DNA of 64,000 nucleotides from an uncultured Candidatus Peribacteria bacterium (GTDB lineage Bacteria > Patescibacteriota > Gracilibacteria > Peribacterales > Peribacteraceae). The DNA is taken from positions 9,561-73,560 of the forward strand of contig CAYHOS010000002.1 in the NCBI GenBank assembly GCA_964358505.1, in the 5' to 3' direction. Below the pieces are notes generated by a model. It was not told where the DNA came from, ran no database searches, and saw only the letters and a program-made list of their open reading frames with translations. Positions 21,117-62,152 of this stretch are shown here, piece by piece (position 1 is the stretch's first letter; every line of letters starts with the position of its first letter). Position numbers and translations under genes: made by a program.

Positions 21117-21209
21117 ACGGACTTCGGACATCGGACTTCGGGCTAGACACTAGGTGGCCAAAGACCGCCTTCAAGAAACTTCAACCGAAGTCCGAATGCC
21201 GAAGTCCGT
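21117..21209. repeat. inverted repeat of GAAGTCC-type heptamer words (family A)
   Basis: acggacttcggacatcggacttcgg (21117-21141) pairs with ccgaagtccgaatgccgaagtccgt (21185-21209). The arms are 25 nt and near-perfect, with a spacer of about 43 nt, between the hrcA stop and the ATPase promoter. Confidence 0.8.
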
Positions 21210-25219: not shown

Positions 25220-25333
25220 GATGGGAGTAGTGTAACAGAGTACTGGTATACGAGAATACGGGATTACGGGTATGGAGGAAAGTGCATTGTTATTGATTTT
25301 GACTCCAAATGCAAGTACTGACATAATCCTTCT

Positions 25334-29831: not shown

Positions 29832-29870
29832 ACGTTTCTTCGTTGATTCGTTTATGGGTTTATTCGTATA
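29832..29870. repeat. CGTTTATT-type word repeat (family E)
   Basis: acgtttcttcgttgattcgtttatgggtttattcgtata uses the same words as the inverted arrays at 34591-34691. Confidence 0.6.
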
Positions 29871-29984
29871 TCATGTCCCTATGCTCTCCATCGTCGCCAC
29901 ACCCACCCTTCGGCTCGTCCGCCTTGGCGGACGCGCCCAGGGTGGGCTTCCCTGTTGCCCCTCTCCTCTCTAATCCTCACGTCT

Positions 29985-32520: not shown

Positions 32521-32613
32521 GAAACCGAGGTAACCGAGAAAGCCGAAGAAACCAAAGAATGACTGACGATCTCCCCCTAGGTTTCCTCGGTTTCATCGGA
32601 TTCCTTGGATTCC
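32521..32613. repeat. inverted arrays of a 9-nt word, GAAACCGAG / CTCGGTTTC (family B)
   Basis: Left: gaaaccgag-gtaaccgag-aaagccgaa-gaaaccaaa (32521-32556). Right: ggtttcctc-ggtttcatc-ggattcctt-ggattcc (32580-32613). Confidence 0.8.
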
Positions 32614-32670
32614 TTCCCCAAGCCCTTCAACAGCTTCCTCTCGCTCCGACGGATCTGCTACCCTCCCTCC

Positions 32671-34590: not shown

Positions 34591-34691
34591 CGAACGAGAA
34601 CGTTTATTGGTTTATTCGTTTCTTTGTTCTTGAGCACAGAACGTCTGCAGCACGAAGACGAATAAACGAATCAACCAATAAACGAGAAACG
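34591..34691. repeat. inverted arrays of 8-nt TTTATTSG words forming a long hairpin (family E)
   Basis: Left: tttattgg-tttattcg-tttctttg (34603-34626). Right: cgaataaacgaatcaaccaataaacg (34658-34683). Lies between pgi and trxA. Confidence 0.75.
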
Positions 34692-39226: not shown

Positions 39227-39300
39227 GGCCAAAGAAACTGTAGAATCCAAGGATAGAAACCTCCTTGGTTTCTTCGGATTCCTCGGTTTCTTCGGATTCC
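39227..39300. repeat. inverted arrays of the 9-nt GGWTTCNTC word (family B, second locus)
   Basis: Right arm ggtttcttc-ggattcctc-ggtttcttc-ggattcc (39267-39300) matches 32580-32613 at 28 of 34 positions. The left arm contains gaatccaagg...gaaacc. Confidence 0.8.
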
Positions 39301-55505: not shown

Positions 55506-55955
55506 CTATTCATCCGTATCCAGAACTATCGTGACCGGCCCGTCATTCACCAAACCCACCTCCATCATCGCCCCGAACTCCCCCGTTTGCACCTTGGGAA
55601 CACCCAGGGAGCGCAGTTTCTCCACGAAGTAGCCGTACACCCTCTTGGCCTCCTCGGGCGCCGCGGCGGCGGTGTAATCCGGCCTGCGGCCTTTCCTCAA
55701 ATCCGCCGCCAGCGTGAACTGCGAGACGACCAACGCCTCCCCGCCCACGTCCAGGAGCGACCGGTCGTTGACCTTGCCATCGGGACCATCGAACAGCCGC
55801 AAGCCCGTCACCTTCTCTGCCAGCTTCTCCGCTTCCGCGACCATGTCCCCCTTCATCACGCAGAGGAGGACCAGGTACCCCTTGCCGATCGTGCCGATGA
55901 CGGAACCGTCGACCGTGACGGATGCCCGGGAGACGCGCTGGAGGACGAGGCGCAT
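55506..55955 (-). CDS. dtd: D-aminoacyl-tRNA deacylase
   Basis: MRLVLQRVSRASVTVDG...LVVSQFTLAAD...NDGPVTIVLD. ATG confirmed at 55953-55955. Confidence 0.92.
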   Translation of the reverse strand: MRLVLQRVSRASVTVDGSVIGTIGKGYLVLLCVMKGDMVAEAEKLAEKVTGLRLFDGPDGKVNDRSLLDVGGEALVVSQFTLAADLRKGRRPDYTAAAAPEEAKRVYGYFVEKLRSLGVPKVQTGEFGAMMEVGLVNDGPVTIVLDTDE

Positions 55956-55982
55956 GGGGGGAGTATAGCGTGATGAATCCTC

Positions 55983-56010
55983 TTGACATACAAACCGAGA
56001 GGGATACACT
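55983..56010 (+). promoter_or_regulatory. promoter of the rplJ-rplL operon
   Basis: TTGACA (55983-55988), 16-nt spacer, TACACT (56005-56010). Confidence 0.6.
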
Positions 56011-56160
56011 GCCCCTGTCCGAAGACCGAGGGCACAAGGCCGCAGGCCGAAATAAGCCCCTCCGAGGAATACAGCATCGGTCACTCGGCCCCGGCTTGGT
56101 GCTTCGTGCCGTGTTCCTCGCTGGTCTCCCGGACAAAGAAGGGAGACCTTTTTTTATCCC
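56011..56160 (+). promoter_or_regulatory. rplJ leader with transcription attenuator (L10-leader-like)
   Basis: Leader of about 210 nt ahead of rplJ. It contains an intrinsic terminator at 56123-56155, the arrangement known for L10(L12)4 autoregulatory leaders. The family assignment is not verified. Confidence 0.5.
56123..56155 (+). terminator. leader terminator/attenuator upstream of rplJ
   Basis: GGTCTCCC-ggacaaagaa-GGGAGACC followed by TTTTTTT. Confidence 0.75.
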
Positions 56161-56185
56161 GCAACTTCCCCATCCTCTCATTCCC

Positions 56186-56226
56186 GAAGTCCGAAGTCCT
56201 AAGTCCTAATCCCCAATCCCTAACCC
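56186..56226 (+). repeat. six-unit heptamer array abutting the rplJ start codon (family A)
   Basis: GAAGTCC-GAAGTCC-TAAGTCC-TAATCCC-CAATCCC-TAACCC, then ATG 56227. Confidence 0.85.
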
Positions 56227-56766
56227 ATGGCCCTCACCAGAGACCAAAAGGCAGCCCAGCTCACGGACCTCAAGGACAAGCTCTCCAAGTCCCAATCCGT
56301 CATCTTCACCCACTACATCGGCCTCACCGTGGCCGAGGCGAGCGACCTGCGCAAGAAGCTCAAGGACGCCGGCGCGGAGATGAAGGTGGCCAAGAAGACG
56401 CTCATGGCGATCGCCGCCAAGGAACAGTGTTTACCGGAACTGCCGGCAACGATGATGGCCGGCCCCGTGGCATGCATCTTCAGCTACAGAGACCCCCTCA
56501 CGGGAGCGCAGGTTGCCTTTTCGTACGCCAAGGACCACCCGCAGGTGGCGTTCGTGGGCGGCTTGTTCGAAGGGAAACTCCTCTCCCAATCCGACGCCAC
56601 CACGCTGGCCAGGATCCCCGGCCGCCAGGTGCTGCTGGCGCAGTTCGCGGGCATGATCCGCTCCCCGCTCGTCTCGTTCGCGAGCATGTGCTCCTCTCCC
56701 CTCTCCGGCTTCGCCCGCGCCCTCTCCGAGAAGGCGAAGAAGATGGCCCCCACCCCAACCGCCTAA
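56227..56766 (+). CDS. rplJ: 50S ribosomal protein L10
   Basis: MALTRDQKAAQLTDLKDKLSKSQSVIFTHYIGLTVAEASDLRKKL... Confidence 0.93.
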   Translation: MALTRDQKAAQLTDLKDKLSKSQSVIFTHYIGLTVAEASDLRKKLKDAGAEMKVAKKTLMAIAAKEQCLPELPATMMAGPVACIFSYRDPLTGAQVAFSYAKDHPQVAFVGGLFEGKLLSQSDATTLARIPGRQVLLAQFAGMIRSPLVSFASMCSSPLSGFARALSEKAKKMAPTPTA

Positions 56767-56770
56767 CCTG

Positions 56771-56819
56771 TCATCCTTCATTCTACATTCTTCATTCTAC
56801 ATTCTTCATTCCCCCTCCC
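56771..56819 (+). repeat. seven-unit heptamer array upstream of rplL (family C)
   Basis: TCATCCT-TCATTCT-ACATTCT-TCATTCT-ACATTCT-TCATTCC-CCCTCCC, then catc and ATG 56824. Confidence 0.85.
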
Positions 56820-56823
56820 CATC

Positions 56824-57228
56824 ATGGCAGACGCAACCATTACCCTCGGCGCCGACGAGCAGGCGGTGATCTCCGCCCTCGAGAAGCTCAACGTTATCCA
56901 GGTCAATAACGTGGTGAAGTACATGGAAGAGACCTACGGCATTTCCGCCGCCGCCCCCGTTGCCGTTGCCGCCGCTCCCGCCGCAGGCGGAGGGGCCGCA
57001 GCCGCCGACGAGGAGAAGACCTCCTGGAACGTGGAGCTCACGGATTCCGGCGCGCAGAAGATCGCCGTGATCAAGGTGGTCCGCGAGATCACCGGCCTCC
57101 CCCTGGGCGAAGCCAAGGCCAAGGTGGATACCCCGCCCCAGGTGCTCAAGGAAGACGTGCCCACCGACGAGGCGAAGAAGATGAAGGAGAAGCTGGAGGC
57201 CGCGGGTGCGAAAGTCGCCCTCAAGTAA
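56824..57228 (+). CDS. rplL: 50S ribosomal protein L7/L12
   Basis: Ala-rich hinge followed by KIAVIKVVREITGLPLGEAKAKVD...KEKLEAAGAKVALK. Confidence 0.95.
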   Translation: MADATITLGADEQAVISALEKLNVIQVNNVVKYMEETYGISAAAPVAVAAAPAAGGGAAAADEEKTSWNVELTDSGAQKIAVIKVVREITGLPLGEAKAKVDTPPQVLKEDVPTDEAKKMKEKLEAAGAKVALK

Positions 57229-58507: not shown

Positions 58508-59254
58508 ATGGCCATGAGGACAGACCGCTATCTCGAACTCGACCTCCTCCGCACGATCGCGATCGTGATGATGGTCATCTACCACGCCGCCTTTGACCTC
58601 TCCTTCTTCTTCGAGTTGCCCCTCAACGCCCTTTCCGGCGGCTGGTTTCTTCTCCAGCGCATGACGGCCAACCTCTTCCTCCTCCTCGTGGGCGTCAGCT
58701 TCGCGGTATCGTACGGGCGGATGGAGGCGAGGGGGGCTTCACGGAGGGAAATCTTGATGAAGTATGCGCGGCGGGGAGCCTTCGTCTTCCTGTGCGGCAT
58801 GCTCGTCACCGCCGTGACGGCATACGTCGTCCCCGACGCGTACGTGCGTTTCGGGGTGCTCCACCTGATCGGCGTCTCCATCGTGCTCCTCCCCTTCCTC
58901 ATGCCGCTGCGGGAAGGGAACATCCTCGCGGCCACACTCGTCTTCTTGATCGGACGCTTCACCGGTACCGCACCCACGAATGGGTGCAGCTTGTGTGTAC
59001 TTCCGTTGGGATGGATGCCTTCGGGCTTCGTCTCGGTGGATTACTATCCCCTCTTCCCCTGGATGGCAACGATCCTCCTCGGGGTAGCGGCGGGGAATGC
59101 GTTGTACAATCGGGGATGGTTACGGTGGCATGTGAGGGAGAGCCGGTGGATGCGGATGATGACGGCGCCTGGGCGGCACGCGCTGGCGATCTACCTGATA
59201 CATCAACCGGTTCTGCTGGGAATCCTCGGGATGATATTTGGCCCGCGTGGATGA
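58508..59254 (+). CDS. DUF1624 (heparan-alpha-glucosaminide N-acetyltransferase-like) membrane protein
   Basis: RYLELDLLRTIAIVMMVIYHAAFDL... with multiple TM segments. TACAAT-gcctcca-ATG at 58508 (ORF track start is 58499). Confidence 0.75.
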   Translation: MAMRTDRYLELDLLRTIAIVMMVIYHAAFDLSFFFELPLNALSGGWFLLQRMTANLFLLLVGVSFAVSYGRMEARGASRREILMKYARRGAFVFLCGMLVTAVTAYVVPDAYVRFGVLHLIGVSIVLLPFLMPLREGNILAATLVFLIGRFTGTAPTNGCSLCVLPLGWMPSGFVSVDYYPLFPWMATILLGVAAGNALYNRGWLRWHVRESRWMRMMTAPGRHALAIYLIHQPVLLGILGMIFGPRG

Positions 59255-59306
59255 GACGCGGCATGCCGCGTCTCTACGAGGACGGCTATTCCGGCATCGA
59301 TGACTG

Positions 59307-59349
<43 letters not shown>

Positions 59350-59352
59350 CCG

Positions 59353-61038
59353 ATGTCTTTCCAGACACGTCGGATTGGCGATGCCGAGAAGCCGCCGCGC
59401 TCGTTTTCCAGGCTGCGCCACGTAGGCGGCAGCTTTACGTGGCTGCGCTACCTTTCCCCATGGCGCATTGCAGGCACGGTGGGCTTCCTCCTGGCCTCCC
59501 CCCTCCTCTACGTCCTGCACAAGCGAAAAGAACGGCAAGAACAGGCCGAAGAGCAGGAAAGGCGCACGGGGGTGCTCAAGCGCACCTTGGTCATCCTGCT
59601 GGCCGTTTTCCTGTGCCTGGCGGTGCTGGCAGGCGTGGCCAAGGCGCTCGTCGCGCTCGACGTGGTGAACGTCCGCACTATCCTGAACGTTGCCGGCGCG
59701 GACCTGCCGCGGGATGGGGACGGCTTCACGAACTTCCTCCTCCTGGGGAAGGGCGATGACGACCACGACGGCATTGATTTGACGGATACCATGATGGCGG
59801 CGAGCGTGGACCCCAAAACCAAGAGCGTGGTGCTGCTCAGCATCCCGCGCGACCTGTACGTGAAGTCCGCCGTCATGGGGGAAGGGCGCATCAACACCCT
59901 CTACCGCGATTACAAGGCTTCCCTCGTCCGCAAGCAGGGGATGACGAAGGAGGAGGCGTCCAAGCAGGCGCTCCGGGAACTGCTGCGGGAAGTGGGGCAC
60001 AAGCTGAACGTGACGCTCCACCACGCCGTGATGGTCAATTTCAGCGGCTTCGTGGACGTGGTGGACGCGCTGGGGGGGCTGGACGTGGAGGTGCCTTACG
60101 ACATCGTGGACACGCAGTACCCGGGACCGGACTGGACGTACCAGACGTTCTCCATCGGCGCGGGGCTGGCGCACTTGGACGGTGAAACGGCGCTCAAGTA
60201 CGCCCGCAGCCGCCATACCACGAGCGACTTCGGGCGCAGCGCGCGCCAGCAGCAGCTCATCCAGGCGCTGGGGGAGCGCGCGAAGAGCGTGGGCATCGCC
60301 AAGAGCCCCCGCAAGATCCTGGCGCTCCTGCGCATCCTCTCCGAAAACGTGGAGACGACGATGACCGGCCAGGAGCTCCTGGGTGCGGCCAAGCTTGGCG
60401 ACCGCATCGAGCGCTCCCGCATGGTTTCCATGCAGCTCAACGACGTGAACGGCGTGTACACCGGCTTCGTGGAAGCCGGCGGCTTCCTGTACACCCCTCC
60501 GCGCGAGGAGTTCGGGGGCGCCGCCGTGCTCCTGCCCATCTCCGCATCGGCTCTGCCGGGCAGCAGTACCGGGCTTGCCCGGCGCAGTCCCGCGGAGCGG
60601 GACGAAGACGGGTGGCGGCAGATCCGTCTCTTCTTCTCCCTGCTCACCCACACCCGCACCCTGTACCTCCAGAACCCCCGCATTGCCGTGCTCAACGCCG
60701 GCGCCAAGACGGGGTTGGCCGGGCGACTGGCAACGGAACTCATCCGCTACGGATTCACCGTGGAGAGGGCCGAGAACGCCGAACTCCCTCCCCCGCCCGA
60801 TTCCACCGCCAAGCGCGCCTCGCTGCCCGCCTCCTCCGTCTCCCCCCAAATTCCGGAAGACCCGACCGCGGCGGCCTTCTTCTCTGCCCTCCTCAACCTC
60901 CCCTCCGCTCCCCTCCCCACGGACCTGCCACTGGAACAGCAAGGCCAGGTGACGATCTTGCTGGGGGAGGACTATACTTTCCAACCCTTTCATGAATTAC
61001 TGAGGGAGCCGGGATCCCCTTCCTCCTCCGTTCCATGA
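59353..61038 (+). CDS. LytR-CpsA-Psr (LCP) family protein with LytR_C-like C-terminal domain
   Basis: N-terminal TM, FLLLGKGDDDHDGIDLTDTMMAASVDPKTKSVVLLSIPRDLYV and ETALKYARSRH. Confidence 0.88.
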   Translation: MSFQTRRIGDAEKPPRSFSRLRHVGGSFTWLRYLSPWRIAGTVGFLLASPLLYVLHKRKERQEQAEEQERRTGVLKRTLVILLAVFLCLAVLAGVAKALVALDVVNVRTILNVAGADLPRDGDGFTNFLLLGKGDDDHDGIDLTDTMMAASVDPKTKSVVLLSIPRDLYVKSAVMGEGRINTLYRDYKASLVRKQGMTKEEASKQALRELLREVGHKLNVTLHHAVMVNFSGFVDVVDALGGLDVEVPYDIVDTQYPGPDWTYQTFSIGAGLAHLDGETALKYARSRHTTSDFGRSARQQQLIQALGERAKSVGIAKSPRKILALLRILSENVETTMTGQELLGAAKLGDRIERSRMVSMQLNDVNGVYTGFVEAGGFLYTPPREEFGGAAVLLPISASALPGSSTGLARRSPAERDEDGWRQIRLFFSLLTHTRTLYLQNPRIAVLNAGAKTGLAGRLATELIRYGFTVERAENAELPPPPDSTAKRASLPASSVSPQIPEDPTAAAFFSALLNLPSAPLPTDLPLEQQGQVTILLGEDYTFQPFHELLREPGSPSSSVP

Positions 61039-61042
61039 CCCC

Positions 61043-61133
61043 CCAAGGATCAAGGACCAAGTACCCAAAACCAAGATCCAGTGACCGAACCCTGATGACA
61101 TCATTGATCATTGGTACTTGGGATTTGGTACTT
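61043..61133. repeat. inverted heptamer arrays CCAAGGA / GGTACTT (family D)
   Basis: Left: CCAAGGA-TCAAGGA-CCAAGTA-CCCAAAA-CCAAGAT-CCAGTGA (61043-61084). Right: GATCATT-GGTACTT-GGGATTT-GGTACTT (61106-61133). Confidence 0.8.
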
Positions 61134-61159
61134 GCCTCCCGCTTCCCATCGCATCCGTC

Positions 61160-62077: not shown

Positions 62078-62152
62078 CCAAGTACCAATGACCAATGACC
62101 AATCTTCGCAAGACGAATGACGGTGGTCATTGGATATTGGTCATTGGTCATT
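62078..62152. repeat. inverted heptamer arrays CCAATGA / GGTCATT forming a hairpin between convergent genes (family D)
   Basis: Left: CCAAGTA-CCAATGA-CCAATGA-CCAATCT (62078-62105). Right: GGTCATT-GGATATT-GGTCATT-GGTCATT (62125-62152), then tt. Confidence 0.85.

Follow-up and report, generated by a model that had tools for sequence, protein, structure and literature searches.

Heptanucleotide repeats lying by the starts or stops of genes have been reported from cyanobacteria, Xanthomonas, Beggiatoaceae and Bacteroidetes, and neither a function nor an origin is known for them. The present study concerns three arrays of this kind, which precede rplJ (ribosomal protein L10), rplL (ribosomal protein L7/L12) and a LytR-CpsA-Psr (LCP) gene in a stretch of 64,000 nt (C2:9561-73560, hereafter the window) of a Candidatus Peribacteria genome, a member of the Candidate Phyla Radiation (CPR). 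Relatives of its L10 protein all carry the label Candidatus Peribacteria, Peribacteraceae or Peregrinibacteria. The assembly amounts to 1.25 Mb in 70 contigs, with a GC content of 61.5% and a completeness of 97%. Heptamer repeats are already in print; what is new here is an example from a CPR phylum and a link to genes of the family PF05635 ('23S rRNA IVS protein', where IVS stands for intervening sequence; IVP below), which was tested three ways. The three arrays are solo copies of dispersed, IVP-linked families, and on balance we lean towards reading them as permissive leader material, and not as a dedicated enhancer, a dedicated substitute for a Shine-Dalgarno (SD) sequence or a slippage switch.

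Direct repeats of the heptamer TAACTGA were described from marine Beggiatoaceae, some Cyanobacteria and Bacteroidetes (MacGregor 2015; PMC4679880). They are mostly intergenic, occur in two to six or more copies in the 'forward' direction, and lie a few nucleotides from start codons, over the expected ribosome-binding site. No SD accompanies them, the genes that follow are essential, the repeats differ between strains by 7-nt steps, and S1, Csp and CsrA were proposed as their readers; the 23S intervening sequence goes unmentioned in that paper (PMC4679880). The arrays of the present study resemble these repeats in being tandem heptamers close to starts, before essential genes and without an SD. 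They differ in several respects: a single unit is used there, whereas at least four heptamer and two octamer families are found here; 169 direct sets stand against one indirect set there (PMC4679880), whereas inverted pairs are common here; and the host belongs to the CPR and has essentially no SD signal in its genome.

A second group, the GGGAATC and GGGGA(C/T)T heptamers of Xanthomonas and Nostoc, is likewise in intergenic excess (Rehm et al. 2015; PMC4692102). The G-rich strand is the non-coding one within 50 bp upstream of open reading frames (ORFs) and the coding one within 50 bp after stops, overlap with the stop codon included. Many of these repeats form inverted pairs, about four units are preferred, and they are mostly transcribed and not unstable; no association with mobile elements was found, and PF05635 genes are not mentioned (PMC4692102). 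Intergenic excess, the polarity rule, inverted pairs and a length of about four units are all shared with the arrays described here. The main difference lies in the G-tracts and G-quadruplexes of that group, which have no counterpart in the four principal families of this genome except in a TAATCCC variant, and there on the complement; the units GAAGTCC, CATTCTA, TTGGTCA and AGCTGAA contain no GGG on either strand.

For Nostoc, a run of eight GAC(C/T)AAT units at recO has been described (Pradhan et al., preprint); when these repeats were deleted, reporter assays showed altered access of a regulator to a promoter. A run that overlaps a start codon is reported in the same preprint. The 7-nt period and intergenic position are as found here, and the unit GACCAAT/TTGGTCA is identical to that of one of our families, in a different phylum, the cyanobacteria. 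Heptanucleotide repeats of heterocystous cyanobacteria go by the name STRR, and such repeats were reportedly described by Mazel et al. in 1990. Intervening sequences that carry a PF05635 ORF are found in the 23S rRNA genes of Leptospira and Coxiella. One IVP gene of the present genome similarly lies inside the 23S rRNA gene, and the other six are arranged in the same way, with the ORF between an arm and its inverted counterpart. The three arrays differ in being solo, with neither a partner arm nor an ORF, and in lying in presumed mRNA leaders instead of rRNA; excision by RNase III cannot apply to them. Heptanucleotide simple sequence repeats are also found at phase-variation loci, such as the promoter repeats of Haemophilus influenzae hmw1A (PMC8262952, PMC12721329), and are likewise tandem and upstream of a gene; such repeats are perfect, often change in copy number and control surface genes, whereas here the units are mixed, copy number holds across four assemblies, and the arrays precede housekeeping genes. 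Literature searches turned up no report of a connection between heptamer repeats and PF05635 genes, and the Peribacteria genome paper makes no mention of such repeats.

The arrays before rplJ, rplL and the LCP gene

The three arrays (Table 1) had been described in a first-pass annotation, made from the letters alone, and the sequence reads just as stated there. All were detected by Tandem Repeats Finder (TRF), and Pfam confirms the gene identities. The rplJ array consists of five heptamers and one hexamer, and grades from GAAGTCC (family A) to TAATCCC and TAACCC, with no gap before the ATG. The rplL array has six units of family C, in which CATTCTA and CATTCTT alternate, giving a 14-nt period with 96% matches (TRF), followed by CCCTCCC and catc; there is not one G in the 53 nt directly before the rplL start codon. 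The LCP array is a variant of family C with the core CATT. That the rplJ array belongs to one family and the rplL and LCP arrays to another explains why, as had been remarked, their words differ. The position flush with the start codon, noted as a shared feature, is correct for rplJ (0 nt) and, allowing for catc, for rplL; the LCP array is flush only if 59353 is the true start, and start refinement favored 59479.

No inverted partner of any of the three was found within 400 nt, nor any ORF between arms, making them solo arrays and not cassettes of the type described below. Readings of the three as hairpins, terminators or RNase III sites were dropped for want of such partners. The unit before rplJ is that of the arms of one IVP cassette (C53), and the layout matches that of the array at clpP (C11:5653-5705), while the unit before rplL is that of the arms of another (C11), which adjoin obg and dnaK.

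Copy number was compared in an 885-nt stretch that takes in both the rplJ and the rplL array, across four public, independent groundwater assemblies from Hainich whose L10 and L12 proteins are identical. Length was identical and one substitution was seen, T to G at 56200, which changes TAAGTCC to GAAGTCC and makes the third rplJ unit equal to the first two. Because four independent assemblies agree, the arrays are not assembly artefacts, and unit number is stable in that population.

Two side observations concern the surroundings of these arrays. In the minimum free energy (MFE) fold of 56768-56830, a 7-bp helix joins CUGUCAU, just 3' of the rplJ stop, to AUGGCAG at the rplL start, with the 49-nt array as its loop; this fold is no better than those of shuffled sequences (z = +0.85) and may be due to chance. 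The stop of the gene preceding the LCP array is overlapped by a perfect palindrome of 11+11 nt (GAGACGCGGCA/TGCCGCGTCTC, 59253-59274), which resembles a terminator or a repetitive extragenic palindrome but is not followed by a T-run.

Dispersed families and their PF05635 cassettes

Genes and starts were called with a crude in-house caller that includes start refinement, by which the non-coding fraction is 22.5% of the genome. Arrays were sought in the genome with a detector of period-7 runs (at least three units, at least 85% self-identity), using shuffled intergenic DNA as control, and TRF was run on both window and genome. The first-pass annotation had proposed such a genome-wide scan, and the enrichment is pronounced: 99 period-7 arrays against 0-1 in the shuffles (15 at period 8 and 11 at period 9), 68 of the 99 lying in the non-coding fraction. 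By TRF, among arrays of at least four copies, period 7 is again the commonest, with 68 arrays; period 6 has 24, and periods 8 and 9 have 17 apiece. After merging, 134 period-7 arrays remained, of which 89 fall in a named family and 74 in families A-D: GAAGTCC (A, 26 arrays), TTGGTCA (B, 26), CATTCTA (C, 16) and AGCTGAA (D, 6). Minor heptamer families and two octamer families complete the picture. Each of the four main units has an invariant core and about two free positions (..AAGTCC, TTGGTnn, CATTnTn and AGCTGnn for A-D), the mode of array length is about 4.5 units, and growth has been by duplication of 7- or 14-nt units. Arrays occur in tandem, divergent and convergent spacers, often as inverted pairs 10-70 nt apart, and take three forms: cassettes around an IVP gene, hairpins without a gene, and solo arrays.

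Seven genes of this genome exceed the Pfam cut-off for PF05635, and all seven are bracketed by inverted arrays, with a distinct unit for each (Table 1). The four most abundant dispersed families had been recognized before the arms were known, and are exactly the arms of four cassettes. Both octamer cassettes have dispersed copies too, including some in the window (25248, 29833, 34601 and 34658). The arms of the cassette between dnaK and obg end 3-4 nt from the two start codons, as the rplL array does. This cassette also contains a good promoter-like site for dnaK (TTGACG-18-TAATAT) that reads outward through the arm, and both dnaK and obg receive a leader with CATTCTA in the sense orientation from it. 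Heptamers ACCGCTG, AATACTC and ATACGCA, together with a nonamer family, have no matching IVP gene in this 97%-complete assembly.

The association extends to related bacteria. Across 17 Peribacteria (this genome and 16 relatives sampled at about 100 kb each), the number of period-7 arrays per 100 kb correlates with the number of PF05635 genes per Mb (Spearman rho 0.79, p = 1.7e-4, phylogeny uncorrected). Where a genome has at most three IVP genes, 0-6 arrays are found per 100 kb (median 1); where it has five or more, the range is 3-23. Units of IVP arms recur about 10-fold more often in the DNA of their own genome than in that of others, with 10 valid self matches against about 1.6 expected after samples containing the cassette were removed; for the units of the present genome, the counts in own and other genomes are 18 and 0 for GAAGTCC, 16 and 1 for TTGGTCA, and 9 and 0 for CGAATAAA. 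The array before rplJ or rplL uses the unit of an IVP arm in two further genomes, G008 (L064) and G017 (L101). A strict one-to-one relation between the two failed in G009, G005 and G011, where no IVP gene with arms matching the rplJ or rplL unit was found; these assemblies may be incomplete, or the arrays may have outlived their cassette. With several families each paired with its own PF05635 gene, and array numbers tracking gene numbers, this genome is an unusually clean case.

Placement relative to genes follows a polarity. Each array of families A-D was oriented as the 3' arm of its cassette, and in the 30 nt before starts 20 arrays have this orientation and two the opposite (p = 1.2e-4), one of the two being the 5' arm of an IVP gene itself. 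After stops, the sense strand reads the 5'-arm version in 24 cases against three (p = 5e-5), and of the solo arrays 35 face the closer gene boundary, against 12 that do not. A single topology is kept throughout, with the purine-richer arm after stops and the complementary arm, G-poor in most families, before starts. Several arrays end 0-4 nt from an ATG, and the genes with flush arrays include those for ClpP, a Mur ligase, a DegT aminotransferase, Obg, DnaK, GatA, LCP, L10 and L7/L12. The first-pass annotation, which considered starts, had not reported that the same families are as common just after stops, in the opposite orientation, or that they form inverted pairs and the arms of PF05635 cassettes.

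Table 1. Arrays, genes, leader elements and IVP cassettes. Positions refer to the window unless a contig (C) is named.
Feature	Position	Strand	Description and evidence
rplJ array	56186..56226	+	GAAGTCC GAAGTCC TAAGTCC TAATCCC CAATCCC TAACCC, then ATG at 56227; TRF, family assignment
rplJ (ribosomal protein L10)	56227..56766	+	ORF; Pfam Ribosomal_L10 PF00466; relatives found
rplL array	56771..56823	+	TCATCCT TCATTCT ACATTCT TCATTCT ACATTCT TCATTCC CCCTCCC (56771-56819), catc, then ATG at 56824
rplL (ribosomal protein L7/L12)	56824..57228	+	Pfam PF00542, PF16320
LCP-gene array	59308..59352	+	ATTTTCC ATTTTTC ATTTTTC ATTTTCC ATTGTAC ATTTCCC (59308-59349), tccg, ATG at 59353; TRF
LytR-CpsA-Psr (LCP) gene	59353..61038	+	Pfam LytR_cpsA_psr PF03816, PF13399
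C53 IVP cassette			arms GGACTTC...GAAGTCC
C11 IVP cassette	C11:30361-30904		arms GAATGTA...CATTCTA; between divergent dnaK and obg
C3 IVP cassette			arms AATGACC...TTGGTCA
C27 IVP cassette			arms TTCAGCT...AGCTGAA
C13 IVP cassette			octamer arms GGAATACG...CCCGTATT
C24 IVP cassette			octamer arms CGTTTATT...AATAAACG
C44 IVP cassette	C44:4400-4960		inside 23S rRNA gene, classical intervening sequence; short arms TTGGCTA...TAGCCAA
Promoter-like site upstream of rplJ	55983..56010	+	TTGACA-16-TACACT; consensus scan, 3 sites against 0.3 expected in shuffles
Conserved structured rplJ leader	56063..56155	+	inverted repeat I3, predicted fold
Gene-less family B hairpin	61043..61134		CCAAGGA-type arm 61043-61065, TTGGTAC-type arm 61111-61134; between LCP stop and start of next gene; TRF
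Gene-less family B hairpin	62084..62152		ACCAATG x3 and TGGTCAT x4 (second arm 62124), between convergent genes; TRF
Family A array (A_C2_30678)	21118..21144	-	AAGTCCG on minus strand, 21 nt upstream of minus-strand gene; TATACT box between array and ATG
Octamer array	29833..29871		CGTTTATT x4.9; more copies at 34601-34621 and 34658-34685; unit of the C24 cassette arms
Octamer array	25248..25270		ATACGGGA x2.9; unit of the C13 cassette arms

Start regions and competing explanations

Among the 759 genes that start with ATG, 19 (2.5%) have GGAGG at -20 to -3, and it is missing before rplJ, rplL and the LCP gene. Between -13 and -10 the share of G is down to 0.11-0.15, and that of C is about 0.5 at -2 and -1. 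The 16S rRNA ends in ...AUCUCCUUA / ...GGAUGGAAUAUCUCCUUA, with the anti-SD UCUCC in place of CCUCC (C38:7400-7600). Similar erosion is found in seven of the nine relatives with a match (L192-L200), six having UCUCC and one UUUCC (G007), with CCUCC kept by the other two. Those two, G010 and G018, also have few IVP genes and few arrays. Candidatus Peribacter riflensis is listed among SD-scarce organisms without CCUCC (PMC10783764). The SD signal is thus absent genome-wide, array-less genes included, and it follows that the arrays do not replace an SD used by other genes. Words of the -10 box (TGCTATACT, TATAAT) are enriched 10-19-fold within 20 nt of starts, with a peak of A at -11 and of T at -7, and this enrichment close to starts implies numerous mRNAs with no leader or only a very short one. 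The other genes have C-rich leaders (TTCCC, CCTCC), again with C at -1 and -2.

Start regions led by an array are predicted to be almost unfolded: over the interval -45 to +15 around the start codon, the median MFE is -3.75 kcal/mol, against -11.6 kcal/mol for other genes (p = 2e-9), and both the rplJ and rplL arrays are unpaired in their MFE folds. A homologue of ribosomal protein S1 with several domains is encoded at C9:41608-42663, matching TIGR00717 at model positions 4-347 (E = 5e-79), below the equivalog cut-off. The first-pass annotation had suggested unstructured S1-type enhancers that replace the SD. Its first half agrees with these predictions and with the presence of the S1 homologue, whereas the idea of replacement does not, given the scarcity of GGAGG and the UCUCC anti-SD described above.

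Our preferred reading can then be put as follows. Families A (at rplJ) and C (CATTCTA/CATTTTN, at rplL and LCP), which also form the inverted arms of IVP cassettes in the same genome, are among the families whose arrays fill intergenic spacers genome-wide and come and go between species, their abundance tracking IVP gene number. At the three genes, an array makes up the last 40-50 nt of the presumed leader, and its immediate effect is a start region that is poor in G and almost without predicted structure, in a lineage with no SD signal and an eroded anti-SD. A leader of this sort may suit SD-independent ribosome loading, either S1-mediated or of the standby type, and for that reason arrays would be tolerated or mildly favored before housekeeping genes.

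Comparison with relatives is in keeping with this. The rplJ and rplL leaders of 20 related species are always G-poor and CU-rich, ending in ...CCC or ...TCC before the ATG, and arrays are found in some only. CATTYTN arrays occur before rplL in L002, L012, L017 and L018 and before rplJ in L009 and L010, arrays of other units are present in the leaders of L006, L007 and L020, and L001, the closest species, has only the trace of a decayed array. No arrays were found in the rplJ and rplL leaders of L003, L005, L011, L013-L016 and L019. That so many orthologous leaders do without an array while keeping the CU-rich tract argues against the arrays being a needed element. The findings reveal how the leaders of essential genes (L10, L7/L12, DnaK, ClpP, Obg) are built in a lineage with an eroded anti-SD, and matter both for the prediction of gene starts and for models of how CPR bacteria initiate translation without an SD.

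Several points weigh against this reading. The polarity is real but is a consequence of hairpin topology: an order with the purine-richer arm first reads alike on both strands, so that any hairpin, or half of one, between two genes obeys the rule, and polarity alone does not show that leaders are under selection. Arrays of family B (TTGGTCA) are not poor in G and yet are placed identically before starts; low G content, held to be a common property of such arrays, is therefore true of the three but was rejected as a general rule. In many cases a -10-like box follows the array, which may then be left out of the mRNA altogether, and for the three arrays, too, transcription and any effect on translation are what we infer from the DNA. 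The correlation of arrays with IVP genes, like the other cross-genome statistics, ignores phylogeny, and the counts before starts and after stops depend on a crude gene caller. Lastly, invariant unit cores of 4-5 nt and a length mode of about 4.5 units fit sequence-specific recognition better than they fit an unstructured spacer.

The last point leads to an alternative that we regard as less likely, namely that each IVP paralogue, a small four-helix bundle and probably a pentamer, recognizes its own 7-8-nt unit where this is tandemly repeated in RNA or single-stranded DNA. Arrays in front of rplJ, rplL, dnaK, clpP, obg, gatA and other genes would then be operators of IVP regulons, and the arms around each IVP gene would serve in autoregulation. 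A periodic binding platform for an oligomeric protein was among the roles first suggested for the arrays, and the cognate IVP paralogue is a concrete candidate for that protein. A distinct unit is found with every IVP gene here (7/7) and at most of about 70 loci in relatives, the dispersed arrays match the units of the genome's own IVP genes, and their density tracks IVP gene number. The invariant cores with their free positions resemble recognition sites, there is a preferred length of about 4.5 units, and the PDB entry of the closest solved homologue, 2RLD, has five chains. PF05635 also resembles Avd, the accessory protein of diversity-generating retroelements (PMC10053308). A common descent of cassettes, hairpins and solo arrays would, however, account for shared units just as well. 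Four families lack an IVP gene in a nearly complete assembly, the rplJ and rplL units of G009, G005 and G011 found no matching arm, and the orthologous leaders of sister species have no arrays. Since common descent and recognition predict the same pattern, a comparison of the IVP tree with the arm units was dropped as a discriminating test. The pairing with PF05635 names a candidate partner protein, by which a descriptive puzzle becomes testable through binding specificity. A bolder version is more doubtful again: pentameric IVP readers might act at the starts of rplJ, rplL, dnaK, clpP, obg, gatA and murD, with the arrays as operators controlling translation or mRNA fate, and the same pairing might also explain the heptamers (STRR-type) of cyanobacteria, Xanthomonas and Beggiatoaceae.

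It is unlikely, in our view, that the arrays are pure relics, that is, decayed halves of selfish, IVS-like hairpin cassettes that have no effect on expression and are tolerated as G-poor filler in leaders without an SD. Gene-less hairpins and solo arrays do share the topology of the cassettes, arrays differ even between close species (neither L001 nor L002 agrees with the window), and Rehm et al. likewise found no bias of functional class among neighboring genes (PMC4692102). Against this, the IVP genes come without a recognizable mobilizing enzyme, core positions of the units are invariant even in solo arrays, and CATTYTN arrays are found again between rplJ and rplL in five or more species whose L10 proteins share only 57-80% identity. 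The rplL array, moreover, with its 96% regularity at period 14, must be either young or maintained.

It is very improbable that the arrays serve as promoters by supplying -35-like boxes (TTGGTC or TTGGTA) at 7-nt registers, or a TACATT -10 box, to the downstream gene. Several arrays of families B, A and D do lie about 17 nt upstream of TATACT, TAGTAT or TACAAT boxes near an ATG, in a genome with many leaderless-type promoters, but the consensus scan found no promoter-like site (at least 9/12) between the rplJ or rplL array and its ATG, nor any promoter between rplJ and rplL; rplL is inside the rplJ operon, and the rplJ array lies some 175 nt downstream of its only promoter-like site, after a conserved leader. 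Least credible of all is a contingency locus in which slippage changes unit number and so tunes or switches expression, a role proposed at the outset together with a comparison of unit numbers: tandem repeats can slip, and the 14-nt super-period of long arrays records past duplications, but unit number is the same in four independent assemblies with their one point difference, the repeats are imperfect and mix several units, the genes that follow have essential housekeeping roles, and Rehm et al. saw no raised instability in the analogous repeats (PMC4692102).

The rplJ leader and other repeats

The promoter-like site upstream of rplJ would, if used, place the rplJ array inside a transcribed leader. 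Between the two lies the structured segment of Table 1, which ends in a terminator-like hairpin formed by GGTCTCCC (56123-56130), a loop and GGGAGACC (56141-56148), followed by seven T (56149-56155). A block of this leader, gtgccgtgttcctcgctggtctcccgg, is common to L001, L002, L007, L014 and L017-L020. A search of 55950-56900 against Rfam, at gathering thresholds and at E <= 1, returned neither the L10 leader (RF00557) nor any other family. The segment may be a lineage-specific attenuator for autoregulation by L10.

The nonamer family (GAGGATTCC / TTCCTCGGA) forms arrays and inverted pairs in the window, at 32583-32614 and 39262-39300, and elsewhere at C9:32344/32422, C5:19999 and C48:1863; no IVP gene with nonamer arms was found in this assembly. 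An eighth, weak PF05635-like match is present at C3:29282. The same contig has the single gene of the family PF13366 (PDDEXK_3, GxxExxY-type), at C3:32290-32631, which directly follows ssb; it is preceded by 8-9-nt repeats of the GGGATT type, and its other flank is a run of N.

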